From an uncultured Flavobacteriales bacterium (GTDB taxonomy: Bacteria > Bacteroidota > Bacteroidia > Flavobacteriales > BACL11), in contig CASIBH010000013.1 of NCBI GenBank assembly GCA_949372805.1, positions 14,342 through 78,341 of the forward strand: a DNA stretch of 64,000 bases. Reading direction: 5' to 3'. Shown here piece after piece: positions 1 to 31,249 of the stretch. The position numbers were made by a program, and so were the translations under genes. The stretch's first letter is position 1. Each line of letters opens with the position of its first letter. The notes under the pieces were generated by a model that was not told where the DNA came from, searched no databases, and worked only from the letters and a program-made list of their open reading frames with translations.

Positions 1-197
1 GGGCCAAAAGCACCAACATCTGCAAGTCCAGGAAGTATTTGTTTTGGAAATACTGCATTCTGACATGCTTCTTCAATTATTGGACTTATATCTCTTTTTA
101 CCCAATCACGAGCCGCATCCCTAATAAGCTTATGTTCATCAGATAATAATTCGTCCATAAGAAAGTAATCAGGCGCTTGAAATAGATCTTGTTTCAT
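1..197 (-). CDS. acyl-CoA dehydrogenase, glutaryl-CoA dehydrogenase-like (first 65 aa only; gene runs off the left edge)
   Basis: Not in the ORF track because it is truncated. The reverse complement from the ATG at 197..195 reads MKQDLFQAPDYFLMDELLSDEHKLIRDAARDWVKRDISPIIEEACQNAVFPKQILPGLADVGAFGP. I recall this N-terminal pattern from glutaryl-CoA dehydrogenase-type ACADs. Confidence 0.55.
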   Translation of the reverse strand, partial: MKQDLFQAPDYFLMDELLSDEHKLIRDAARDWVKRDISPIIEEACQNAVFPKQILPGLADVGAFG

Positions 198-6578: not shown

Positions 6579-7250
6579 ATGAATAAATTATATATTGTTC
6601 CTACTCCAATAGGAAATTTAGATGATATTACTCTAAGAGCAATAAAAATTCTAAATACTGTTGAGCTAATTTTAGCTGAAGATACAAGAGTTAGTAAAAA
6701 ATTATTAAATCATCTTAATATTGATGCAAAATTATTCTCTTTTCATCAATTTAATGAACACAAACAGCTTAATAAAATTATTGATAAACTTCAAAATGAT
6801 TGTGCGATTGCATTAATATCTGACGCAGGAACACCTGGTATTTCTGACCCAGGTTTTTTGTTGATTCGTGAATGTTTAAGGCATGATATTGAAATAGAAT
6901 GTTTGCCGGGAGCAACTGCTTTTGTTCCAGCCCTAATAAATTCAGGCCTCCCTTCAGATCGATTTATATTTGAAGGTTTCTTACCAGTTAAGAAAGGAAG
7001 ATTAAAAAGAATAGAGTTGTTGAAGAATGAATCCAGAAGTATGATCTTCTATGAATCTCCGCATAGACTTATAAAGACATTAACTCAATTTATTGACTAC
7101 TTTGGTGGAGATAGGGAGGTTTCAGTCTCAAGAGAAATTAGTAAAATTTATGAGGAAACAAAGAGAGGTAAACTTATAGAAGTTATTGAATATTTTAGTG
7201 ATAAAAAACCAAAGGGAGAATTTGTAATTATTATATCAGGTAAAAAATGA
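6579..7250 (+). CDS. rsmI: 16S rRNA (cytidine1402-2'-O)-methyltransferase
   Basis: LYIVPTPIGNLDDITLRA N-terminus and SDAGTPGISDPG motif, typical of RsmI. Confidence 0.9.
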   Translation: MNKLYIVPTPIGNLDDITLRAIKILNTVELILAEDTRVSKKLLNHLNIDAKLFSFHQFNEHKQLNKIIDKLQNDCAIALISDAGTPGISDPGFLLIRECLRHDIEIECLPGATAFVPALINSGLPSDRFIFEGFLPVKKGRLKRIELLKNESRSMIFYESPHRLIKTLTQFIDYFGGDREVSVSREISKIYEETKRGKLIEVIEYFSDKKPKGEFVIIISGKK

Positions 7251-8926
7251 GCAAGGAATGGATAACACCAAATATTGATTTTGAAAAAGCTGTAGATTTA
7301 TCAAACTCTTTATCTGTTTCACATGATATAGCTAAATTACTTCTGCTCAGAGGTGTTTCAAATTATTCAGAAGCTGAAAATTTCTTTCGACCTAATATCA
7401 ATCAACTTCACAATCCTTTTGATATGAAAGATATGAATTTAGCGATTGAAAGAATTGAATTAGCTATTCAAAGAAATGAGAGAGTGTTAATTTATGGAGA
7501 TTATGATGTAGATGGAACTACTGCAGTATCTATGATGTTTGATTTTTTTTCAAAATATTTTTCATTTTTAGATTACTATATTCCTGACAGATATAGCGAA
7601 GGTTATGGGGTTTCTATTAAGTCAATTGACTTTGCGAAAAAAAATGAATTTACCTTAATAATTGCTCTAGATTGTGGAATCAGAGCAGTTAAGCAAATTG
7701 AATATGCTAACGATTTAAATATTGACTATATTATTTGTGATCATCATAATCCAGGAGAAATTATACCTGCGGCTAAGGCAATACTTAATCCCAAACAATT
7801 ATCATGTAATTACAAGTTTAAAGAACTTTCAGGCTGTGGTGTGGGTTTTAAATTAATTCAGGCTTTCTGTATAAAAAGAAATATAAATAGTAATAAACTA
7901 ACACCTCTTTTAGACCTATTAGCAATTTCTATTGCTGCTGATATCGTCCCTATAGTAGATGAAAATCGTATTTTAATGTTTTACGGCTTACAGCAAATTA
8001 ATCGTTCTCCTAGAGAAGGTATTAAAGCGCTTATTAATTCTGCAAAGAAAGATAAAGAGATAAAAATTTCTGATATTCTTTTTGGTATTGCTCCTTTAAT
8101 TAATGCAGCTGGAAGAATCCTTCATGGTAAGCATGCCGTCGAAGTATTAGTGGAAAAAGATGTTAGTAAGGCAACGGTTTATGCTGAGAAGATAAATGAA
8201 CACAATAGTGTTAGAAAAGGTTTAGATAAATCAATAACTGAGGAAGCGTTATTACTTGTAGATAATTCTAAGAAATCAACAGTTCTTTTTTCTGACAAAT
8301 GGCATAAAGGTGTTGTTGGTATAGTCGCTTCCAGAGTTATAGAAACCTTTTATAAACCGACAATTATTCTAGTTGAAAAAAATGGCATACTAACAGGTTC
8401 TGCCAGATCTGTACATGATTTTGATATTTATTCAGCAATTAATGAATGTGCGTATTTATGTGATAATTTCGGAGGACATAAATATGCCGCAGGTCTTACC
8501 ATTAAGAAAGAAAATATACATGAGTTTATTGACAAATTTGAACAAGTTGTATCTGAAAAAATTAAGAAAAGTCAGCTCATGCCAAGATTAAATATTGATT
8601 TAGAAGCTAAATTAGAAAAAATTGATGCTAAATTTTTTAGAATTTTAAAGCAGTTTGAGCCTTTTGGTCCTAAAAACCCTAATCCTAAATTTGTTTCAAA
8701 AGATATTTTAATTAAAGATTATAGAGCTATTGGGAAAGACAAATCACATCTTAAATGTATTGTAGATAATGGGAAGGGTTTGATAATTGAAGCAATTGGT
8801 TTTGGTTTGGCAAATAAAATAGATTATATCAACAAAACTAATGAGCTGAGTATTTGTTATAGTCTTTCTGAAAATGTCTGGAACTCAAAAGTTACTAATC
8901 AACTTATCCTTCATGATATTAAATAA
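7247..8926 (+). CDS. recJ: single-stranded-DNA-specific exonuclease RecJ
   Basis: DHH family motifs (YGDYDVDGTT, DCG, ICDHH) and DHHA1 GGHKYAAG. ATGA overlap with rsmI. Confidence 0.9.
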   Translation: MSKEWITPNIDFEKAVDLSNSLSVSHDIAKLLLLRGVSNYSEAENFFRPNINQLHNPFDMKDMNLAIERIELAIQRNERVLIYGDYDVDGTTAVSMMFDFFSKYFSFLDYYIPDRYSEGYGVSIKSIDFAKKNEFTLIIALDCGIRAVKQIEYANDLNIDYIICDHHNPGEIIPAAKAILNPKQLSCNYKFKELSGCGVGFKLIQAFCIKRNINSNKLTPLLDLLAISIAADIVPIVDENRILMFYGLQQINRSPREGIKALINSAKKDKEIKISDILFGIAPLINAAGRILHGKHAVEVLVEKDVSKATVYAEKINEHNSVRKGLDKSITEEALLLVDNSKKSTVLFSDKWHKGVVGIVASRVIETFYKPTIILVEKNGILTGSARSVHDFDIYSAINECAYLCDNFGGHKYAAGLTIKKENIHEFIDKFEQVVSEKIKKSQLMPRLNIDLEAKLEKIDAKFFRILKQFEPFGPKNPNPKFVSKDILIKDYRAIGKDKSHLKCIVDNGKGLIIEAIGFGLANKIDYINKTNELSICYSLSENVWNSKVTNQLILHDIK

Positions 8927-22146: not shown

Positions 22147-23244
22147 ATGTCTGACAAAACCTCTTCAGTCCATTATATTGACTATCTTGATTTAGATAAA
22201 ATTTTAGATGCTCAAAACCCTTTGAGTACAAAAAATAATAATGAAGCTCATGAAGAGATGTTGTTTATTATTATACATCAAACATATGAATTATGGTTTA
22301 AGCAAATAATTCATGAGATTAATTCAATCATGGATTTATTTAAAAAACAGCAAATTGACGAAGAGAATGTTGGTTTAATTGTTGGTAGAATAGGTCGTGT
22401 TAACAAAATCCTTGAAGTATTAGTTAAGCAATTAGATATTCTTGAGACCATGACATCTCTTGATTTTTTAGAGTTCAGAAACTATCTTTCACCAGCCTCT
22501 GGCTTCCAATCTCATCAGTTTAGAAAACTCGAAGTAATGTTAGGACTAAAAATTGATAATCGTCATCAGTTTGGTGGATGCCCTTATCATAGTCAATTTG
22601 AAGGTGATAAGAAAAAGGAAATTCTTGAAATAGAGGATAACGTTTCATTATTTGATCTTGTAGAAAAGTGGCTTGAAAGAATACCATTTTTGGAGATGAA
22701 AGATTTTAATTTTATTGAAAAATATCAGAAAGCAGTATGGGATATGGTTAGCAGTGAGATTAATGAGATAAATAGCTCGTTATTACTTAATGAAAATGAT
22801 AAGGCGATTCGTGTTAAGATGATTGAAGAAAATAGAAAATATTTTGAAAATGTGTTCAATAAAGAAAACCATCTTAAGGCTATAGATGACGGTACTACTA
22901 AGCTATCATATAAAGCAACTATGTCAGCATTATTGATAAATTTATATCGAGACCAGCCCATACTTCATCTTCCATACAGGTTTTTAAGAGAGTTAGTGGA
23001 AATGGATCATAAGATTGCATCTTGGAGATTTAGACATGTTCAAATGGTTGAGAAAATGCTTGGTCAAAAAATTGGTACCGGAGGATCTTCTGGTCAAGGA
23101 TATCTTAAAAAAACAGTTGATCAACATAGATTATTTGAAGATATTGCCAATATAGCAACACTGATGATTTCAAGAGTTTACCTTCCAGAACTTCCATCAA
23201 GTATAAAAAATGAACTAGGATATAATTTTACTAATAAAAAATAA
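22147..23244 (+). CDS. kynA: tryptophan 2,3-dioxygenase
   Basis: HEEMLFIIIHQTYELWFKQIIHE, SGFQSHQFRKLE and GTGGSSGQGYL motifs, characteristic of TDO. Confidence 0.9.
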   Translation: MSDKTSSVHYIDYLDLDKILDAQNPLSTKNNNEAHEEMLFIIIHQTYELWFKQIIHEINSIMDLFKKQQIDEENVGLIVGRIGRVNKILEVLVKQLDILETMTSLDFLEFRNYLSPASGFQSHQFRKLEVMLGLKIDNRHQFGGCPYHSQFEGDKKKEILEIEDNVSLFDLVEKWLERIPFLEMKDFNFIEKYQKAVWDMVSSEINEINSSLLLNENDKAIRVKMIEENRKYFENVFNKENHLKAIDDGTTKLSYKATMSALLINLYRDQPILHLPYRFLRELVEMDHKIASWRFRHVQMVEKMLGQKIGTGGSSGQGYLKKTVDQHRLFEDIANIATLMISRVYLPELPSSIKNELGYNFTNKK

Positions 23245-24021
23245 ATGGATTTAGGCTTAAAAAACAAGAATGCAATTGTTTGTGGAAGCACACAGGGAAT
23301 TGGAGAGGCTACTGCACAAGAATTAGCAAGACAGGGTGCAAATATTACTTTAGTTGCCAGAAATAAGGATGTTTTAAGTAATGTTTTAGAATCACTTGAT
23401 AAATCTTTGGGACAGAGTCATCGTTTTGTTTGTATTGATTTTAGTGCAGATAATTTTCTAGAAAAGATTCAAGCCTTAGATCAATCTTATGATATTTTAA
23501 TAAATAATACTGGAGGCCCTGCAGGAGGACCAATTATAGATGCCAAGCCACAAGCTTTTCTAGATGCATTTAAAATGCATTTAATAAATAACCAGCTTTT
23601 AGTTTCACATGTTGTACAGTCGATGAAAGTAAAAAATTTTGGTAGAATTATTAATGTTATTTCTACCTCTGTTAAAGCGCCAATTCAAGGTCTGGGAGTA
23701 TCCAATACTATAAGAGCTGCTGTAGCTAATTGGGCTAAAACATTATCACTTGAACTTGGCCCTTTTGGAATAACCGTTAATAATGTCCTGCCTGGTTTTA
23801 CAAATACAAATAGACTAACTTCAATTATTCAAAGAAAAGCTAATGAGCAATCTAAATCAATTGATGATGTCTCTAAGGCAATGCAAAGCTCTGTGCCAGC
23901 TAGAAGGTTTGGAGAGTCTCACGAAGTAGCAAATGCTGTAGCTTTTCTAAGTTCAGTTGGAGCGAGTTATATTAATGGAATAAATCTACCTGTTGATGGT
24001 GGTAGAACAGCAAGCTTATAA
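23245..24021 (+). CDS. atypical short-chain dehydrogenase/reductase (catalytic YxxxK replaced by SxxxR)
   Basis: Rossmann motif CGSTQGIG, NNTGG, and PG after the active-site region. By hand alignment to FabG, the canonical Y and K positions read S-N-T-I-R. No YxxxK exists in the expected region. Confidence 0.8.
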   Translation: MDLGLKNKNAIVCGSTQGIGEATAQELARQGANITLVARNKDVLSNVLESLDKSLGQSHRFVCIDFSADNFLEKIQALDQSYDILINNTGGPAGGPIIDAKPQAFLDAFKMHLINNQLLVSHVVQSMKVKNFGRIINVISTSVKAPIQGLGVSNTIRAAVANWAKTLSLELGPFGITVNNVLPGFTNTNRLTSIIQRKANEQSKSIDDVSKAMQSSVPARRFGESHEVANAVAFLSSVGASYINGINLPVDGGRTASL

Positions 24022-24024
24022 CAT

Positions 24025-25467
24025 ATGGAAAAAATATTAAATTATATTGATGGAGAAATGCGAGCACCATCTTCAAATAAATATATTAACAACTATAACC
24101 CCTCTAGTGGTCAGGTTTATTCGTTAATTGCTAATAGCAGTAAGAAAGATATTAATTCAGCAGTTGATTCTGCAAAACAAGCTTTTAATGATTGGAGTAC
24201 AAGCTCAAAAAAATTCAGACATGATGTGCTTATGAGTATTGCTGATAAAATTGAAGAAAATTTTGAAGCATTAGTAGTTGCAGAAAGTTTAGATAATGGT
24301 AAAACAGAAAGTTTAGCTCGAAGAGTTGATATACCAAGAGCTTCAGAAAATTTTCGGTTTTTTGCAACAGCTATACTACACTTTTCTTCTGAAACTCATG
24401 ATATGGATGGCAAGGCATTAAACTATACTTTAAGAGAACCAGTTGGTGTTTGTGCTTGTATTTCTCCTTGGAATTTACCTTTGTATTTACTCACTTGGAA
24501 GATCGCTCCTGCTCTTGCGGCAGGTAATACTGTGGTTGCTAAACCTTCAGAGATAACTCCTATGACTGCATACTTATTAAGTAAAATATGTATTGAAGCA
24601 GGTGTGCCCAAAGGCGTTTTAAACATTGTTCATGGATTAGGTTCTGAGATTGGTGATAATTTAACTACTCACCCTGACGTACCTATTGTTTCTTTTACTG
24701 GAGGGACATTAACTGGTCAACATATTGCAAAAGTAACCGCTCCTATGTTTAAGAAACTATCTCTTGAGCTAGGAGGTAAAAACCCAAATATTGTTTTTGA
24801 TGATGCAGATTTTGAAAAATCTGTATCAATGGCTGTTAAAGCCGGTTTTTCTAACCAAGGACAAATATGTCTATGTGGATCAAGATTATTTGTTCAGGAA
24901 ACTATTTATGAAAAATTTAAAATTGCCTTACTTGAAAAAATATCTGAGCTAGCGGTTGGGAGTCCTCTCGATAATAAAACAGATATTGGGGCTGTTGTGT
25001 CGCATGAGCATATGACAAAAATATTGTCAAAAATAGGAGAAGCTGAAGAGCTTGGTGGAAAGATTTTATGCGGAGGTAAAAGAAAAATATTGGCAGGAAA
25101 TTTAAAGGGAGGATATTATCTAGAGCCCACTGTTATAGAAGGTTTAAGCTATGATTGTAGTATAAATCAAGAAGAAATTTTTGGCCCTGTATTAAGTTTA
25201 TTACCATTTAAAAGTGAAGAAGAGGTTATCATGATGGCAAATTCTACAAAATATGGTTTATCAGCAAGTATTTTTACTAATGATATTAGTAGAGGACATA
25301 GAGTCGCTGCAAAAATAAAGGCTGGAGTTGTTTGGGTAAATACTTGGCTTTTAAGAGATCTTAGAATCCCATTTGGCGGCATGAAACAATCTGGTATTGG
25401 TAGAGAAGGAGGGTTTAAGTCTTTACAGTTTTTTACAGAGCCAAAAAATGTATGTATTAAAATATAA
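24025..25467 (+). CDS. NAD-dependent aldehyde dehydrogenase, probable 2-aminomuconate-6-semialdehyde dehydrogenase
   Basis: ALDH motifs ELGGKNP and the catalytic Cys in GQICLCGSR. The specific role is inferred from its position between kynurenine-pathway genes. Confidence 0.8.
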   Translation: MEKILNYIDGEMRAPSSNKYINNYNPSSGQVYSLIANSSKKDINSAVDSAKQAFNDWSTSSKKFRHDVLMSIADKIEENFEALVVAESLDNGKTESLARRVDIPRASENFRFFATAILHFSSETHDMDGKALNYTLREPVGVCACISPWNLPLYLLTWKIAPALAAGNTVVAKPSEITPMTAYLLSKICIEAGVPKGVLNIVHGLGSEIGDNLTTHPDVPIVSFTGGTLTGQHIAKVTAPMFKKLSLELGGKNPNIVFDDADFEKSVSMAVKAGFSNQGQICLCGSRLFVQETIYEKFKIALLEKISELAVGSPLDNKTDIGAVVSHEHMTKILSKIGEAEELGGKILCGGKRKILAGNLKGGYYLEPTVIEGLSYDCSINQEEIFGPVLSLLPFKSEEEVIMMANSTKYGLSASIFTNDISRGHRVAAKIKAGVVWVNTWLLRDLRIPFGGMKQSGIGREGGFKSLQFFTEPKNVCIKI

Positions 25468-25470
25468 AAT

Positions 25471-25887
25471 ATGAATGGTAAAAAATTTAATAGCTCAAGA
25501 GCACCTCTAGCAGTTGGTCTTTATCCACACGCCAGACAGGTAGGTGATTTATTGTTTCTATCTGGTGTAGGCCCCAGAGTTCCTGACTCCAAAGATATTC
25601 CTGGAGTTACTTTAGATGATAATGGCTTAATTGTAAATTATGATATTGCCAAGCAATGTCATTCTGTATTTACAAATATTCGATATATTTTAGAAGATGC
25701 TGGATCATCATGGAATAATATTATTGATGTTCAGGTGTTTTTAACCAATATGAAGGATGACTTCTCTACATATAATAAAATTTATGCTGAATATTTTAAG
25801 GAAAATCAACCATGTAGAACAACTATTGAGATCAAAAGTTTGCCTACGCCCATTGCAATAGAATTAAAAATTATAGCAACAATTTAA
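25471..25887 (+). CDS. RidA/YjgF family protein, probable 2-aminomuconate deaminase
   Basis: 138 aa with RidA-type sequence (LFLSGVGP ... VQVFLTNM ... CRTTIE). Known 2-aminomuconate deaminases (AmnD type) belong to this family. Confidence 0.75.
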   Translation: MNGKKFNSSRAPLAVGLYPHARQVGDLLFLSGVGPRVPDSKDIPGVTLDDNGLIVNYDIAKQCHSVFTNIRYILEDAGSSWNNIIDVQVFLTNMKDDFSTYNKIYAEYFKENQPCRTTIEIKSLPTPIAIELKIIATI

Positions 25888-25899
25888 TAAATAGAAATT

Positions 25900-26430
25900 A
25901 TGAATACAATACGAAGACCTTTTAACTTTAAAAAATGGATTGATGATAACCAAGAATTTCTAAAACCTCCTATTGGAAATAAATGTGTTTATACAGAATC
26001 AGAAGATTTTATTATCATGGTAGTAGGAGGTCCAAATGTTAGAAAAGATTATCATTATAATGAAACTGAAGAGTTTTATTATCAGATTAAAGGAGATATA
26101 GTTGTAGGGATTCAGGAAAATGGAATTGCTGTTGATATTCCTGTTAAAGAAGGAGAGATTTTTCTTCTGCCCGCCAAAGTACCACACTCACCAAAAAGAA
26201 GTGCAGGCTCTATTGGATTGGTGATTGAGGCAAAAAGAAAAACAAATGAGATGGATGGATTGATGTGGTTCTGTGAAAATTGTAATGAGTCAATACATAG
26301 TACCAAATTTAAACTTACTAATGTTGAGAAAGATTTTCAGCCAAGATTTAAAGAGTTTTATAATTCAGAAGACTTAAGAACATGTAAAAAATGTAATAGT
26401 GTAATGCAGGCTGATAAGAGGTTTTTATAA
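25900..26430 (+). CDS. nbaC: 3-hydroxyanthranilate 3,4-dioxygenase
   Basis: Cupin core (DYHYNETEEFYYQIKGD ... LLPAKVPHSPKR) plus a C-terminal rubredoxin-like CxxC...CxxC (CENCN ... CKKCN). Confidence 0.9.
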   Translation: MNTIRRPFNFKKWIDDNQEFLKPPIGNKCVYTESEDFIIMVVGGPNVRKDYHYNETEEFYYQIKGDIVVGIQENGIAVDIPVKEGEIFLLPAKVPHSPKRSAGSIGLVIEAKRKTNEMDGLMWFCENCNESIHSTKFKLTNVEKDFQPRFKEFYNSEDLRTCKKCNSVMQADKRFL

Positions 26431-27447
26431 ATGAAGAAGATATTTACAATTGATATCCACACTCATATTCTTCCTAAGAATATTCCGAATTTTAGTAAAA
26501 AATTTGGATATGGAGAATTCATTAATCTTGAACACCACAAACCTTGTTGTGCAAAAATGATGATGAATGATCAGTTTTTTAGAGAAGTAGATGAGAATTG
26601 CTGGTCCCCATCTGCTAGAATTAAAGAATGTGATCATCATAATGTTGATGTACAGGTTTTATCCACTGTTCCCGTAATGTTTTCATATTGGACTAAACCA
26701 AAAGATGGTTTAGAGATTTCTAAATTCATTAATGATGATCTTATTGAATCAGTTTCAAAGAATCCTAAAAGATTTGTTGGGCTTGGGAACCTACCTATGC
26801 AAAGTACAGATTTAGCTATTAAAGAATTAGAAAGATTAAAATCTATTGGTTTTAAAGGTATACAAATAGGCTCACATATTAATGATTTGAATTTAGATGA
26901 TCCATCTTTTTTCCCTATTTATGAAGCTTGTGAAAGTTTAGATATGGCAATTTTTGTTCATCCCTGGTGGTGGATGGCTAAAGAAAAAATGGATAAATAC
27001 TGGTTGCCATGGCTTGTTGGAATGCCAATGGAAACTTCTTTAGCAATTTGCTCTATGATTTTCAGTGGTGTATTTCAGAAATTCCCCAAATTAAGAGTAG
27101 CCTTTGCTCACGGAGGCGGTTCTTTTCCTTCTACAATTGGAAGAATTGAGCATGGATTTAATGTGAGGCCAGATCTTGTAGCAGTAGACAATAATGTAAA
27201 CCCAAGAGATTATTTAGGACAGTTTTGGTTAGATAGTCTTGTCCATGATGATAAAATGTTAGAATATATTATTGAACTTGTCGGAGAAGATAAAGTTGCA
27301 CTTGGAACTGATTATCCATTTCCGCTTGGTGAATTATCTCCGGGAAAATTAATTCATGACAGGCCTTATCCTAATAATGTAAAAGAGAAATTACTTTCCA
27401 ATAATGCTTTAGATTGGCTAAATATGAAAAAAGAAGATTTTATTTAA
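26431..27447 (+). CDS. 2-amino-3-carboxymuconate-6-semialdehyde decarboxylase (amidohydrolase_2)
   Basis: IDIHTHILP metal motif, AFAHGGGSFP and GTDYPFPLGE, as in ACMSD. Confidence 0.85.
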   Translation: MKKIFTIDIHTHILPKNIPNFSKKFGYGEFINLEHHKPCCAKMMMNDQFFREVDENCWSPSARIKECDHHNVDVQVLSTVPVMFSYWTKPKDGLEISKFINDDLIESVSKNPKRFVGLGNLPMQSTDLAIKELERLKSIGFKGIQIGSHINDLNLDDPSFFPIYEACESLDMAIFVHPWWWMAKEKMDKYWLPWLVGMPMETSLAICSMIFSGVFQKFPKLRVAFAHGGGSFPSTIGRIEHGFNVRPDLVAVDNNVNPRDYLGQFWLDSLVHDDKMLEYIIELVGEDKVALGTDYPFPLGELSPGKLIHDRPYPNNVKEKLLSNNALDWLNMKKEDFI

Positions 27448-28247
27448 TGAATGCTAATCTAACTATTGGGACTTGTGATTATTACGTTGACTTTACACTC
27501 TCAAACGATTTGTCAATTCCTTTAAATTTTAATGGAAATCAGCCTAACACCTATGGAGTAGATTTTGCAACTTCAAAGCCTTATACTGACGATCAATTTA
27601 TTGGAGATAGAAGAAAAGGTGGCCCTTGTAATTTTGAAGTATATACATTAACCCCTCACTGCAATGGAACTCATACAGAATGTATTGGACATATTACAGA
27701 AGAAAGAATATCAATTTTAAATTCACTAAGAGATGTAATGATAGCTAGCTCTTTGATCACAGTTTCTCCAAGTATTACTAATGAGTCATATGTGCCAGAC
27801 ATCAATAGTGATGATCTTGTTATTACCAAAAAAGAACTTTTTAATAAACTTGAAAATGTACCATCAGCCTTACTTAAAGGATTAATAATTAGGACTAGTC
27901 CAAATAAGAAAAACAAAAAATCTCAAGATTATATGAAATTACCTCCTGCTTTTTTTAGCCTTGAGGCTATGCAGTATATAGTAAGTAAAGGGGTAGAACA
28001 TTTATTAGTTGACACTCCTTCTGTAGATAGGTTATTTGATGATGGAAACCTTTCTGCACATAATACTTTCTGGGATACTAATAAAAAAATATATAACCCA
28101 CATACTAAACATAAAACTATCACAGAAATGATTTTTGTTGACAATAATATTTCTGATGGCAGTTATCTTTTAAATTTACAAATACCTGCATTTGTTGCAG
28201 ATGCTGCTCCAAGTCGTCCAATAATATTTAAGTTAAATGACATATAA
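27447..28247 (+). CDS. cyclase-family protein, divergent kynurenine formamidase candidate
   Basis: HCNGTHTECIGH resembles the cyclase/KynB HxGTHxDxPxH motif, with one extra residue and Glu in place of Asp. LLVDTPSVD resembles the second family motif. The start is moved to the ATG in TAATG overlapping the ACMSD stop. Confidence 0.6.
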   Translation: MNANLTIGTCDYYVDFTLSNDLSIPLNFNGNQPNTYGVDFATSKPYTDDQFIGDRRKGGPCNFEVYTLTPHCNGTHTECIGHITEERISILNSLRDVMIASSLITVSPSITNESYVPDINSDDLVITKKELFNKLENVPSALLKGLIIRTSPNKKNKKSQDYMKLPPAFFSLEAMQYIVSKGVEHLLVDTPSVDRLFDDGNLSAHNTFWDTNKKIYNPHTKHKTITEMIFVDNNISDGSYLLNLQIPAFVADAAPSRPIIFKLNDI

Positions 28248-29487
28248 CACTTCAAAAGATTTTGCTTGTCAAATGGATTCCATTGATCCTCTAAAATCAT
28301 TTCAAGATAGGTTTTATATTCCTAAACAGAAAAATGGCGAAAGACATATTTATTTATGTGGAAACTCGCTTGGTTTACAAAGTAAGAATACATCTCAATA
28401 TATTGAACAGGAATTAAAAGATTGGAAGAATTTAGGAGTAGAGGGTCACTTTCATGCTAAAAACCCTTGGCTTCCTTATCATGAGTTTTTGTCTGATAGT
28501 TACTCAAGAATCGTTGGAGCTAGAGTTAGTGAAGTTGTTGCAATGAATACTCTCTCTGTAAATTTACATTTAATGTTAGTTTCATTTTATCGTCCTGATA
28601 ATAAACGTTTTAAAATAGTAATTGAAGACGATGCTTTTCCATCAGATATTTATGCTGTTGAGTCTCATATCAAACATCATAATCTCAATCCTGAAAATAT
28701 TCTTATTAGGTTAAAACCAAGAGAGGGAGAAAGTTCTATTAGAACAGAAGATATTGAAGAAATAATTAATAATCAAGGAGATCAAATAGCACTTCTAATG
28801 CTTGGAGGAGTTAACTATTATACTGGTCAGGTTTTTGATTTTAAAAATATAACTAGATTTTGTCACAAAAAAGGAATTAAAGTAGGATTTGATTTAGCTC
28901 ATGCTGTTGGAAATATCGAATTATCACTTCATGAATGGCAAGTTGATTTTGCTGTTTGGTGTTCTTATAAATATCTTAATTCTGGCCCTGGTTCAATAGG
29001 TGGAGTTTTTGTTCATTCTAAACATCATAATAGTGAATTGCATAGGTTTGCCGGATGGTGGGGGCATAATAAGGAGGATAGATTTAAAATGCCTGATAAG
29101 TTTAATCCTATAAAATCAGCTGAAGGTTGGCAGCTAAGCAATCCTCCTATTCTTTCACTTGCCGCTATTAGAGCTTCATTATCAATCTTTGATGAAGTTG
29201 GCATGGAAGCATTAATTAAAAAATCTACGAAAATGACTTCCTATCTAGTGTTTTTACTTAAAAATATTTCATCTAATCGAATTTCTATTATTACTCCAAA
29301 AGAAAGAGGATGTCAGATTTCTATACGAGTCTCTGGAGGAGATAAAGTCTTATTTGATAAGATAACTCAAAGAGGAGTCATTGCTGACTGGAGAGAGCCT
29401 GATGTGATTAGGGTGGCTCCAGTTCCTTTGTATAATAGTTATTTGGATGTATTTAATTTTTATAAAATTTTAGAAGAGATATTATAG
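28237..29487 (+). CDS. kynU: kynureninase
   Basis: YLCGNSLGLQ and the PLP-lysine region CSYKYLNSGPG. 11-nt overlap with the upstream gene. Confidence 0.9.
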   Translation: MTYNTSKDFACQMDSIDPLKSFQDRFYIPKQKNGERHIYLCGNSLGLQSKNTSQYIEQELKDWKNLGVEGHFHAKNPWLPYHEFLSDSYSRIVGARVSEVVAMNTLSVNLHLMLVSFYRPDNKRFKIVIEDDAFPSDIYAVESHIKHHNLNPENILIRLKPREGESSIRTEDIEEIINNQGDQIALLMLGGVNYYTGQVFDFKNITRFCHKKGIKVGFDLAHAVGNIELSLHEWQVDFAVWCSYKYLNSGPGSIGGVFVHSKHHNSELHRFAGWWGHNKEDRFKMPDKFNPIKSAEGWQLSNPPILSLAAIRASLSIFDEVGMEALIKKSTKMTSYLVFLLKNISSNRISIITPKERGCQISIRVSGGDKVLFDKITQRGVIADWREPDVIRVAPVPLYNSYLDVFNFYKILEEIL

Positions 29488-29488
29488 T

Positions 29489-30823
29489 ATGAAAAAAGAT
29501 GTAATTATAGTTGGTGCTGGATTAGCGGGTTCATTATGTGCATTATATATGCTTAAAAGAGGCTTTAAGGTTAGGCTATATGAAAGAAGGGCAGATATGA
29601 GAAATACTGTTTTAATTGCAGGAAGGTCAATTAATCTTGCGCTATCAGTAAGAGGGTGGACTGCACTTGAAAGAGTTGGAGTAGATGATAATGTTAAAGA
29701 AATATCTATAGCAATGCCAAAAAGAGTTATGCATGATCTAGAGGGTAATCTTACAGATCAGTTTTATGGAAATAAAGATCAGGCAATTTATTCTGTTCCT
29801 CGGGGCGAGTTAAATGTTCTTTTAATGAATTTAGCACAAGAGAGAGGAGCGGAACTTTTTTTTAATCAAAAATGTTATGATGTAGATATGGAAAATCCGC
29901 GACTTACATTTGAAAACACTATTGATGGTAAAATTTCTAATGTTAGTTGCGATTTAATTATTGGTGCTGATGGTGCTTTCTCTGCTATTAGAACTAAGAT
30001 GATGAAGCAGGATCGTTTTCAATACTCTCAATACTATATTGAGCATGGATATAAGGAGTTGTTGATACCTGCAAATTTAGATGGTTCTCATAAAATTGAA
30101 AAGAATGCTTTACATATTTGGCCTCGAGGTAACTTTATGTTGATTGCCCTACCAAATCTTGATGGTAGCTATACTTGCACACTCTTTTCTCCTTTTGAAG
30201 GAAAAGACTCTTTTAGTGAATTAAAAACAACTAATGAGATAACTAATTTTTTTAACTCTGTATTTAAAGACTTCACCCCTTTAATTCCCGATTTGGTAGA
30301 ACAGTTTTTAAATAATCCTACAGCTTCTTTAGGAATTTTTAAGTGTTTTCCATGGAATGTAAAAGATTTTTGTGTGCTTATTGGTGATTCTGCACATGCA
30401 ACGGTACCTTTTTATGGACAAGGGATGAACGCTAGCTTTGAAGACTGTAGAGTATTAGATGATTTAATTGAGGAGTATGAAGGGGATATGCTTATGAGTT
30501 TAAATAAATTCTCTCAGTTAAGAAAGCCTAACGGAGATGGTGTTCAGGATTTATCTCTTCATAATTTTATTGTTATGAGAGATAAAACAGCAGATCCAAT
30601 ATTTTTACTACAAAAAAAAATAGAACAAAAATTTGCTCAGTTACATCCTGAAAAATGGCTTCCATTGTATAGTATGGTCTCTTTTTCAAATATTTCATAT
30701 GCAGATGCTTGGGCTATTGGAATGGAACAAGAAAAGTTAATGTCTAAAATCATGAGCTTACCTAAAATAAAAGAGACATGGGATAGTGATTTTGTTATGC
30801 AAGAAATGCTTAAAATGTGCTAA
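29489..30823 (+). CDS. kmo: kynurenine 3-monooxygenase (FAD-dependent)
   Basis: FAD motif VIIVGAGLAGS and IGDSAHATVPFYGQGMNASFEDC. Confidence 0.9.
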   Translation: MKKDVIIVGAGLAGSLCALYMLKRGFKVRLYERRADMRNTVLIAGRSINLALSVRGWTALERVGVDDNVKEISIAMPKRVMHDLEGNLTDQFYGNKDQAIYSVPRGELNVLLMNLAQERGAELFFNQKCYDVDMENPRLTFENTIDGKISNVSCDLIIGADGAFSAIRTKMMKQDRFQYSQYYIEHGYKELLIPANLDGSHKIEKNALHIWPRGNFMLIALPNLDGSYTCTLFSPFEGKDSFSELKTTNEITNFFNSVFKDFTPLIPDLVEQFLNNPTASLGIFKCFPWNVKDFCVLIGDSAHATVPFYGQGMNASFEDCRVLDDLIEEYEGDMLMSLNKFSQLRKPNGDGVQDLSLHNFIVMRDKTADPIFLLQKKIEQKFAQLHPEKWLPLYSMVSFSNISYADAWAIGMEQEKLMSKIMSLPKIKETWDSDFVMQEMLKMC

Positions 30824-31249
30824 ATGATATTTAATGATATTAAAAAAAGTTCAATCTTATTTTTTTTAATGGCTTTGCCATTTTTTGCTTACTCTGGATG
30901 CGAAGATGGAGATTGTGAAAATGGTTATGGAACGTATATATGGAGAAATGGAGATTCTGATTTAAGTTCATGGATTGTTGGGGATAAGTATATAGGTTCA
31001 TTTAAAAATGGTAAGATGCATGGCCAAGGAAAGCATGTTAGCACAAATGGTAAAATATATATTGGTAGTTACTTATTTGGGCTCCGAAGTGGTTATGGAA
31101 TTCTAAAATATAAAGATGGTTCTTCTTATACTGGATTTTTTAAGTACAATTTAATGCATGGGAAAGGAATTATAATTGATGTTAAAGGAGTAACAAAAAA
31201 TGTATTATTTGATTATAATAAGATCATTAAAACTAACTTAGATGATTAA
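30824..31249 (+). CDS. MORN-repeat lipoprotein
   Basis: Lipobox-like FAYSGC followed by about four YxGxxxxGxxHGxG MORN repeats (YIGSFKNGKMHGQG, YIGSYLFGLRSGYG, YTGFFKYNLMHGKG). Its ATG directly abuts the KMO stop (TAAATG). Confidence 0.8.
   Translation: MIFNDIKKSSILFFLMALPFFAYSGCEDGDCENGYGTYIWRNGDSDLSSWIVGDKYIGSFKNGKMHGQGKHVSTNGKIYIGSYLFGLRSGYGILKYKDGSSYTGFFKYNLMHGKGIIIDVKGVTKNVLFDYNKIIKTNLDD

Follow-up and report, generated by a model that had tools for sequence, protein, structure and literature searches.

Bacterial degradation of 2-aminomuconate is described as a route (amn, nba and Burkholderia) in which 2-aminomuconate deaminase is followed by 4-oxalocrotonate decarboxylase, 2-oxopent-4-enoate hydratase, an aldolase and acetaldehyde dehydrogenase. 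A second route leads from 2-aminomuconate to 2-oxoadipate; maps of tryptophan metabolism have shown it for decades without genes. A preprint of June 2026 identified the human and animal 2-aminomuconate reductase (AMR) as ASPDH, with L-2-aminohex-3-enedioate as the product, and reported that fungi use a bacterial-type deaminase instead, that reductase and deaminase are mutually exclusive in eukaryotes, and that neither in animals nor in fungi are the later steps toward 2-oxoadipate known so far (bioRxiv 10.64898/2026.06.05.730449). Here we analyzed a gene for an atypical short-chain dehydrogenase/reductase (SDR) at positions 23245..24021 of a 64-kb stretch of DNA, hereafter the window, from an uncultured Flavobacteriales bacterium (contig CASIBH010000013.1). 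The gene lies in a kynurenine operon that offers a candidate for the step from the deaminase product to 2-oxoadipate. The original prediction for this window had assumed that the animal 2-aminomuconate activity was without an assigned gene, which the preprint has overtaken; for the post-deaminase step (2-oxohex-3-enedioate to 2-oxoadipate), our literature searches found no published gene.

The sole functionally characterized close homologues of the SDR are AerF and BacG/YwfH. AerF of Microcystis aeruginosa (PDB 6jh7/6jha/6jhb) is described as an NADPH-dependent conjugate C=C reductase of dihydro-4-hydroxyphenylpyruvate in Choi biosynthesis (PMC10143770), and BacG/YwfH of Bacillus subtilis (PDB 3u49/3u4c) carries out the NADPH-dependent conversion of H2HPP to H4HPP in bacilysin biosynthesis (PMC9147277).

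A Tyr-less SDR in a kynurenine operon

The operon is a block of ten genes on the same strand, with all gaps no longer than 12 nt, encoding tryptophan 2,3-dioxygenase (TDO, kynA), the SDR, 2-aminomuconate-6-semialdehyde dehydrogenase (AMSDH), a RidA-type deaminase, 3-hydroxyanthranilate 3,4-dioxygenase (HAAO), ACMS decarboxylase (ACMSD), a formamidase, kynureninase, kynurenine 3-monooxygenase (KMO) and a MORN-repeat protein. The SDR gene (+ strand) starts with ATG and encodes 258 aa. The TAA stop codon of the TDO gene ends at 23244, leaving a gap of 0 nt, and the SDR stop codon ends at 24021, 3 nt ahead of the aldehyde dehydrogenase (ALDH) ATG at 24025; these coordinates agree with the original placement of the SDR between kynA and the AMSDH gene. 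PDB matches to human ACMSD, AMSDH and 6izh likewise bear out the ACMSD, the ALDH and the RidA-type deaminase that had been read from the operon. Because all steps up to 2-oxohex-3-enedioate have genes, the SDR is the only conserved member of the operon without a step, and the cluster holds no other outlet for 2-oxohex-3-enedioate/4-oxalocrotonate.

The Pfam search that had been proposed as a check assigned the protein to SDR families (adh_short_C2, 7.5e-38; adh_short, 6.2e-32) and, apart from a weak Sacchrp_dh_NADP match, to nothing else. The protein is identical to proteins from marine Flavobacteriales metagenome-assembled genomes (MAGs). As noted originally, the glycine motif of the Rossmann fold of classical SDRs is kept (G14-S-T-Q-G-I-G20), and L36-V-A-R39-N40 contains the R39-N40 signature of NADPH. 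The YxxxK site is occupied by S153-N-T-I-R157, a reading made earlier and now supported by both sequence and alignments; the only two tyrosines, Y82 and Y242, are not within a YxxxK, and no YxxxK occurs anywhere in the protein. Of the classical Asn-Ser-Tyr-Lys tetrad, Ser140 is retained, with Ser153 standing in for Tyr and Arg157 for Lys. Further motifs are N88-x-x-G91-P92, S140-T-S-V-K144-A-P146 and P183-G-x-T-x-T188-x-R190.

S-N-x-x-R is the signature of a large clade and not a peculiarity of the window SDR. A homologue search over 1.84 billion 50%-identity representatives yielded 559 such clusters matching the SDR at E ≤ 1e-30. Conservation was counted in an alignment of 121 full-length 50%-identity representatives reaching down to 35% identity, with counts given out of 122. 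At the YxxxK site, S153 was found in 117/122, N154 in 109/122 and R157 in 115/122 sequences. Elsewhere, S140 and P146 were each conserved in 117/122, K144 in 80/122 (plus 12 with Arg), G91 in 119/122, P92 in 118/122, T188 in 120/122, and R190 and R39 each in 111/122. The window SDR carries the features that define the clade, namely S-N-x-x-R in place of YxxxK, S-x-x-x-K-x-P following strand 5 and, within the substrate loop, T-x-R. Its best PDB matches in sequence and in structure are themselves S-N-x-x-R proteins (E 5e-47, TM 0.95). Solved but functionally unassigned members comprise 5va8, 5vps, 5idx/5idy (Burkholderia), 2z1n (APE0912) and 1o5i (TM1169); they share S-N-x-x-R, K-x-P and T-x-R with the window SDR, and 5va8, 5idy and 5vps are NADP(H)-bound. 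We take the clade to be, presumably, CDD cd05344 'BKR_like_SDR_like', of which APE0912/2z1n would be a named member.

Most of the clade is without kynurenine linkage, and members at 45–46% identity to the window SDR lie in contexts unrelated to kynurenine genes, so the SxxxR motif alone is uninformative on tryptophan. The kynurenine-linked subclade (approximately 48% identity or more to the query) differs from other clade members by residues of its own (H59, H112, N116, T141, G151, V152, N247, P249 and R254). Distant S-N-x-x-R SDRs (36–39% identity) were observed on alphaproteobacterial plasmids of Martelella (L081, 6075-7777) and Rhizobium leguminosarum (L082, pR132504, 7001-8512), where they are translationally coupled to a DHDPS-family protein or have an RraA-like protein downstream. 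As these are families of 2-oxo-acid enzymes, they hint that the whole clade handles 2-oxo acids. A 428-aa SDR (P0136) considered as a fusion was rejected; the extra 170 aa at its N terminus gave no match and resemble an over-called open reading frame (ORF) in high-GC DNA.

AerF aligns with the SDR over the full length at 35% identity (E 1e-45). Its YxxxK site reads K-S-G-V-V-N and that of BacG T-N-S-M-M-N, with both Tyr and Lys missing from each; what all three proteins have in common is the R-N cofactor signature, a K-x-P behind the catalytic Ser and the PGxxxTxR loop. An alignment-based AlphaFold2 model of the SDR (pLDDT 97.2) has the SDR fold, and a Foldseek search with it placed Burkholderia proteins, AerF (3rd) and YwfH (9th) on top, the latter two with TM 0.91–0.93. 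The top structural matches are all NADP(H) complexes. A preference of the SDR for NADPH would fit these nearest structures and the conserved R39. The substrate proposed below resembles those of AerF and BacG in being an unsaturated 2-oxo acid with a C=C bond conjugated to the keto group. The fact that the nearest characterized homologues lack the Tyr and use NADPH to reduce the C=C bond of conjugated 2-oxo acids makes ene-reduction more plausible. Genes for prephenate decarboxylase (AerD/BacA) and the cupin isomerase (AerE/BacB) were found neither in the window nor in the 80 loci of relatives described below, where the neighbours are kynurenine genes.

Linkage in relatives and the decarboxylase route

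GTDB was scanned with one genome per species, using a closer 18-sequence alignment in place of a 51-sequence one that was too diverse. The scan returned at least 599 relatives. The best 80 (54–68% identity) were taken with 10-kb flanks and searched with the operon proteins of the window. Their hosts are Flavobacteriales, Cytophagales, Saprospirales, Chitinophagales, the gammaproteobacterium Pleionea, and a few MAGs labelled as other phyla, Planctomycetota among them. At least one kynurenine gene lies within 10 kb of the SDR in 58/80 loci and within 400 bp in 50/80, with a median of 55 bp between the SDR and the closest such gene. The immediate neighbours are AMSDH (31), HAAO (26), ACMSD (13), TDO (2) and RidA (1).

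Locally, the linked genes are arranged and oriented in ten or more different ways. Examples are KYNU-KMO-RidA-ALDH-SDR-HAAO-ACMSD in Flavobacteriaceae and TDO-SDR-ALDH-RidA-HAAO in relatives of the window. In Cytophagales and Saprospiraceae, HAAO and SDR form a divergent pair that may or may not be accompanied by ALDH. One further locus (L035) reads SDR-ALDH-RidA-HAAO-ACMSD-KYNU-KMO, and Pleionea has SDR-ALDH. With the linkage surviving many rearrangements, we regard co-location by chance as very unlikely. The survey of neighbourhoods suggested originally divides, in that the closest relatives are linked and most of the SxxxR clade is not. We hold the status of the SDR as a dedicated enzyme of the kynurenine pathway to be much more secure than the specific reaction assigned to it. 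A 48%-identical SDR of an organism with 73% GC (L097; GCA_046484665.1, JAWOIN010000103.1, 2870-10401) adjoins a formamidase, kynureninase and a QPRT-domain protein. The same locus holds Amidohydro_3 and isochorismatase-family proteins, a context that resembles NAD biosynthesis and not the ACMSD/AMSDH branch.

Clustering of neighbours and annotation of the recurrent families across the 80 loci found no other family that travels with the SDR, only lineage synteny. On this ground O-methyltransferase, NIF3, peptidase S51, TatA, MsrA, DUF6702, DUF1697, M20 peptidase, PhyH and an esterase were all rejected as pathway members. A DUF1697 gene lies between KMO and RidA in six Flavobacteriaceae clusters (L006, 6364-6882; L011, L015, L022, L069 and L077).

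The classical outlet for 4-oxalocrotonate is missing from the window. Pfam searches of all ORFs of at least 100 aa in the 64 kb found no FAA_hydrolase (4-oxalocrotonate decarboxylase or hydratase), HMGL-type aldolase, acylating acetaldehyde dehydrogenase or tautomerase, and phmmer searches with E. coli MhpD, MhpE and MhpF against the six-frame ORFs of the window gave no match, which extends to the whole window the original reading that the operon lacks these decarboxylase, hydratase and aldolase genes. Across the 80 SDR loci (1.39 Mb), an MhpD-like FAA_hydrolase gene was present in one, and MhpE-like and MhpF-like genes in none. In the reverse direction, HAAO was used as bait on plasmids and chromids of other phyla. 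All four loci with HAAO, ACMSD, RidA and ALDH (Rhodococcus, Bacillus, Caballeronia and Polaromonas) hold FAA_hydrolase genes, three of these non-Bacteroidota clusters also hold aldolase and acetaldehyde dehydrogenase genes, and an S-N-x-x-R-clade SDR was found in 0/4. Except for a single locus discussed below, these counts follow the expected anti-correlation between the SDR and 4-oxalocrotonate genes.

Two SDRs met in the reverse search were rejected as clade members: the one following ACMSD in Caballeronia is unrelated at E<1e-8, and the one encoded next to HAAO/ASPDH on a plasmid of Ensifer has the classical YxxxK. SDRs are also syntenic with fungal HAAO/ACMSD/AMSDH/AMD clusters (ATEG_10008, for instance), and one occurs in the 3-HAA clusters of Aspergillus (PMC7842363). 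The search also showed HAAO together with a DHDPS-family protein and an 'aspartate dehydrogenase' homologue on alphaproteobacterial replicons without ACMSD, AMSDH or RidA nearby, in Ensifer adhaerens (L084, NZ_CP083351.1, 8985-12157), Ruegeria sp. AD91A (L085, NZ_CP031947.1, 8009-10531) and Chelatococcus sp. CO-6 (L091, NZ_CP012399.1, 8993-17188). This trio may be a further undescribed 3-hydroxyanthranilate route, since human ASPDH has been reported as a 2-aminomuconate reductase.

Proposed reaction and its alternatives

Based on the gene identities, the conserved linkage, the missing decarboxylase route and the homology to Tyr-less ene-reductases, we infer both a substrate and a product for the SDR. 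The function we consider most likely, at about an even chance, is that of an NADPH-dependent reductase converting 2-oxohex-3-enedioate to 2-oxoadipate after 2-aminomuconate deaminase, in a lower kynurenine pathway of Bacteroidota type. In the proposed scheme, tryptophan would be converted to 2-aminomuconate via TDO, formamidase, KMO, kynureninase, HAAO, ACMSD and AMSDH, and the RidA-type deaminase would then free ammonia to give 2-oxohex-3-enedioate, the keto form of 4-oxalocrotonate. In the SDR reaction, C4 of this alpha,beta-unsaturated 2-oxo acid would receive a hydride from NADPH and C3 of the resulting enolate a proton, giving 2-oxoadipate, which general metabolism would carry on to glutaryl-CoA. 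Arg157, Ser153/Asn154, Lys144 and Arg190 may bind or polarize the 2-oxo-carboxylate or the distal carboxylate and hold the enolate, and the missing Tyr/Lys pair suits a conjugate C=C reduction over a carbonyl reduction. The SDR is, in our opinion, the best candidate for the reduction of the opened-ring intermediate to 2-oxoadipate, an assignment that is supported but unproven. The original proposal of RidA deamination followed by SDR reduction to 2-oxoadipate thus stands as a candidate on the strength of the linkage, the missing decarboxylase route and the AerF/BacG homology, but not as the animal gene.

Several observations weigh against this assignment. No kynurenine gene lies within 10 kb of the SDR in 22/80 loci; these unlinked SDRs share H59, H112, N116, T141, G151, V152, N247 and P249 with the linked ones and, carrying these subclade residues, look like orthologues in genomes with dispersed pathway genes. 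RidA is within 10 kb in just 31/80 loci, so the pairing of deaminase and reductase is not obligatory, and many linked loci come from related Flavobacteriaceae, so that the linkage counts are not independent events. The single MhpD-like gene (E 3e-31), in Mesonia aestuariivivens (L009, 5799-6584), lies between KMO and RidA in the same cluster as the SDR, which could be a hybrid or transitional cluster. The reverse sample was small, with four loci, and, as the searches covered loci with 10-kb flanks, a 4-oxalocrotonate pathway elsewhere in the SDR-bearing genomes is possible. Finally, position 157 is Asn in AerF and BacG, which use cyclic mono-carboxylates, whereas the SDR has Arg and its proposed substrate is a linear dicarboxylate; the analogy to them is therefore by chemistry class only.

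The order of deaminase and reductase, which we infer, is not fixed by gene content, and the SDR might instead act before RidA as a functional analogue of metazoan ASPDH/AMR. It would then reduce 2-aminomuconate as an enamine or imine, with RidA hydrolyzing the resulting 2-iminoadipate/2-aminohex-2-enedioate to 2-oxoadipate, or the product would be an amino acid (2-aminohex-3-enedioate or 2-aminoadipate). RidA proteins classically hydrolyze 2-imino acids, there is a precedent for an NAD(P)H-dependent enzyme that reduces 2-aminomuconate directly (bioRxiv 10.64898/2026.06.05.730449), and the many loci with SDR and AMSDH in which RidA is not within 10 kb would suit direct use of 2-aminomuconate. 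Set against this, the window RidA is closer to the dedicated 2-aminomuconate deaminase 6izh than to generic RidA proteins, a fungal 2-aminomuconate deaminase (AMD) of the 6izh-like type does not hydrolyze 2-iminopropanoate, and the substrates of AerF and BacG are 2-oxo acids and not amino or imino acids. Moreover, reductase and deaminase exclude each other in eukaryotes, while both are present here in one operon. On balance we regard the reversed order as unlikely, though it is the alternative to which we give the most weight.

An accessory role is less probable still. Pathway intermediates are notoriously unstable, and the SDR might reduce a reactive aldehyde or quinone-imine side product, such as 2-hydroxymuconate semialdehyde or oxidized 3-hydroxyanthranilate, or make a 2-hydroxy acid by reducing the 2-oxo group of 2-oxoadipate/4-oxalocrotonate. 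Ten loci have the divergent HAAO/SDR pair alone with no other lower-pathway gene near, and the 48%-identical SDR sits with upper-pathway and NAD genes (KFA, KYNU and QPRT) and not with ACMSD/AMSDH. However, carbonyl reduction by SDRs normally requires the catalytic Tyr, which is missing across the clade, and AMSDH is the commonest immediate neighbour, both of which make this role less likely; in addition, clusters without an SDR step would offer 4-oxalocrotonate no way out. We find it highly improbable that the SDR is a generic FabG-like enzyme, placed in the operon by historical accident and kept there through Bacteroidota synteny. In favour of this reading, the protein is named '3-oxoacyl-ACP reductase' or 'SDR family oxidoreductase' by JGI and NCBI, related Flavobacteriaceae account for much of the linkage, and more distant clade members are not linked to kynurenine genes. 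Yet the scores against FabG models are far under the curated cut-offs (NF009466, 135 of 222 bits; TIGR01830, 126 of 298; NF004198, 118 of 296) and the catalytic Tyr and Lys are missing, for which reasons we rejected the 3-oxoacyl-ACP reductase label. In addition, the linkage has outlasted extensive rearrangement, inversion between strands and transfer between orders and between phyla, and chance adjacency to approximately 8 pathway genes among approximately 3000 would, by our own estimate, be well under 1%, against the 50/80 seen.

If the SDR reduces 2-oxohex-3-enedioate after deamination as proposed, Bacteroidota and scattered other bacteria would run a third, undescribed lower branch of tryptophan/3-hydroxyanthranilate degradation, in which a RidA-type deaminase is followed by a Tyr-less SDR ene-reductase leading to 2-oxoadipate; we hold the existence of this branch to be roughly as probable as not. 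For abundant marine Flavobacteriales, the prediction is that tryptophan carbon flows to glutaryl-CoA and not to pyruvate and acetyl-CoA. The gene would be the first for a 2-oxohex-3-enedioate (4-oxalocrotonate) reductase in any organism; the large S-N-x-x-R SDR clade would gain its first physiological function, and the search for the missing post-deaminase step in fungi a template. A large misannotated or unannotated 'FabG-like' family, which includes several orphan crystal structures, would also receive a reaction class, namely that of enzymes reducing unsaturated 2-oxo acids by conjugate addition.

Other operon genes and comparison with known systems

The remaining genes of the operon, all on the + strand, were annotated as follows. 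TDO, encoded by the first gene (22147..23244), matches Pfam Trp_dioxygenase (1.3e-97). AMSDH (24025..25467) matches Aldedh (4e-166) and has the AMSDH structures 7bzv and 4i1w as its best PDB matches (E approximately 1e-127). The RidA/YjgF-family protein, a 2-aminomuconate deaminase of the AMD type (25471..25887), matches Ribonuc_L-PSP (1.1e-26), and its top PDB match is 6izh (5.8e-24), generic RidA proteins ranking lower. HAAO (25900..26430) scores 261 bits against NCBIfam NF009763 (cut-off 220) and matches Pfam 3-HAO (1.5e-58). ACMSD (26431..27447) is animal-like, with Amidohydro_2 at 1.2e-42 and human ACMSD (2wm1, 4ofc; E approximately 4e-130) as its best PDB matches; it scores 437 bits against human ACMSD and 248 bits against that of Pseudomonas. 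The cyclase-family kynurenine formamidase (27414..28247) matches Cyclase (8.9e-13) and, weakly, TIGR03035 arylformamidase. Its start is ambiguous: the listed TTG at 27414 overlaps ACMSD by 34 nt, and the in-frame ATG at 27447, over the ACMSD stop codon, is likelier. Kynureninase (28237..29487) scores 459 bits against TIGR01814 (cut-off 246), and the FAD-dependent KMO (29489..30823) matches FAD_binding_3 (8e-24), its orthologues clustering with kynureninase in 34/80 loci of relatives. The gene for the MORN-repeat protein (30824..31249, 141 aa; Pfam MORN, 5.5e-20) begins directly after the KMO stop codon and may be co-transcribed with the operon. A scan of the operon for sigma-70 promoters and terminators, which does not cover Bacteroidota promoters, found sites no commoner than in shuffled sequence.

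In most Flavobacteriaceae, and in the locus L002 (13198-14220), the slot of ACMSD in otherwise syntenic operons is taken by a very divergent Amidohydro_2 protein. These proteins score 62–92 bits against the window ACMSD, compared with approximately 500 bits in other loci, and the two ACMSD types seem to have been exchanged in place. RidA splits likewise (approximately 85 versus 215–250 bits).

The glutaryl-CoA-dehydrogenase-like gene at 197..1, to which the original prediction had tied the fate of 2-oxoadipate, is real but no more than a 65-aa N-terminal acyl-CoA dehydrogenase fragment (Pfam, 9.5e-07) with weak GCDH/ACX4 matches (E approximately 1e-4). The fragment is weakly diagnostic, and it lies 22 kb from the operon with housekeeping genes between, so the link is weak.

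Compared with the classical bacterial route, the window operon shares HAAO, ACMSD, AMSDH and the RidA-type deaminase, and hence 4-oxalocrotonate/2-oxohex-3-enedioate. It differs in having the SDR and no decarboxylase, hydratase or aldolase, and its predicted product is 2-oxoadipate instead of pyruvate and acetyl-CoA. Maleylacetate reductase (EC 1.3.1.32) likewise catalyzes an NAD(P)H-dependent C=C reduction of an oxo-hexenedioate from ring cleavage to an oxoadipate, but it is a non-homologous enzyme with the iron-containing alcohol dehydrogenase fold and converts 4-oxohex-2-enedioate to 3-oxoadipate.

Like animal ASPDH/AMR, which acts immediately after AMSDH, the SDR would be an NAD(P)H-dependent reductase of tryptophan catabolism that steers carbon off the decarboxylase route toward 2-oxoadipate/glutaryl-CoA. 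Unlike the SDR, ASPDH/AMR has the aspartate dehydrogenase fold, uses 2-aminomuconate as substrate and has no co-occurring deaminase in eukaryotes. Pfam gave no homology of the SDR to aspartate dehydrogenase and its structural matches are all SDRs; as ASPDH is of an unrelated fold, the SDR would be a bacterial solution and not the animal gene. AerF and BacG, in turn, belong to secondary metabolism and are encoded beside prephenate decarboxylase and isomerase genes, whereas the SDR lies in a catabolic operon. The SDR would be an AerF/BacG-like Tyr-less ene-reductase recruited into catabolism, where, with about even chances for the specific reaction, it would define a third bacterial lower branch.

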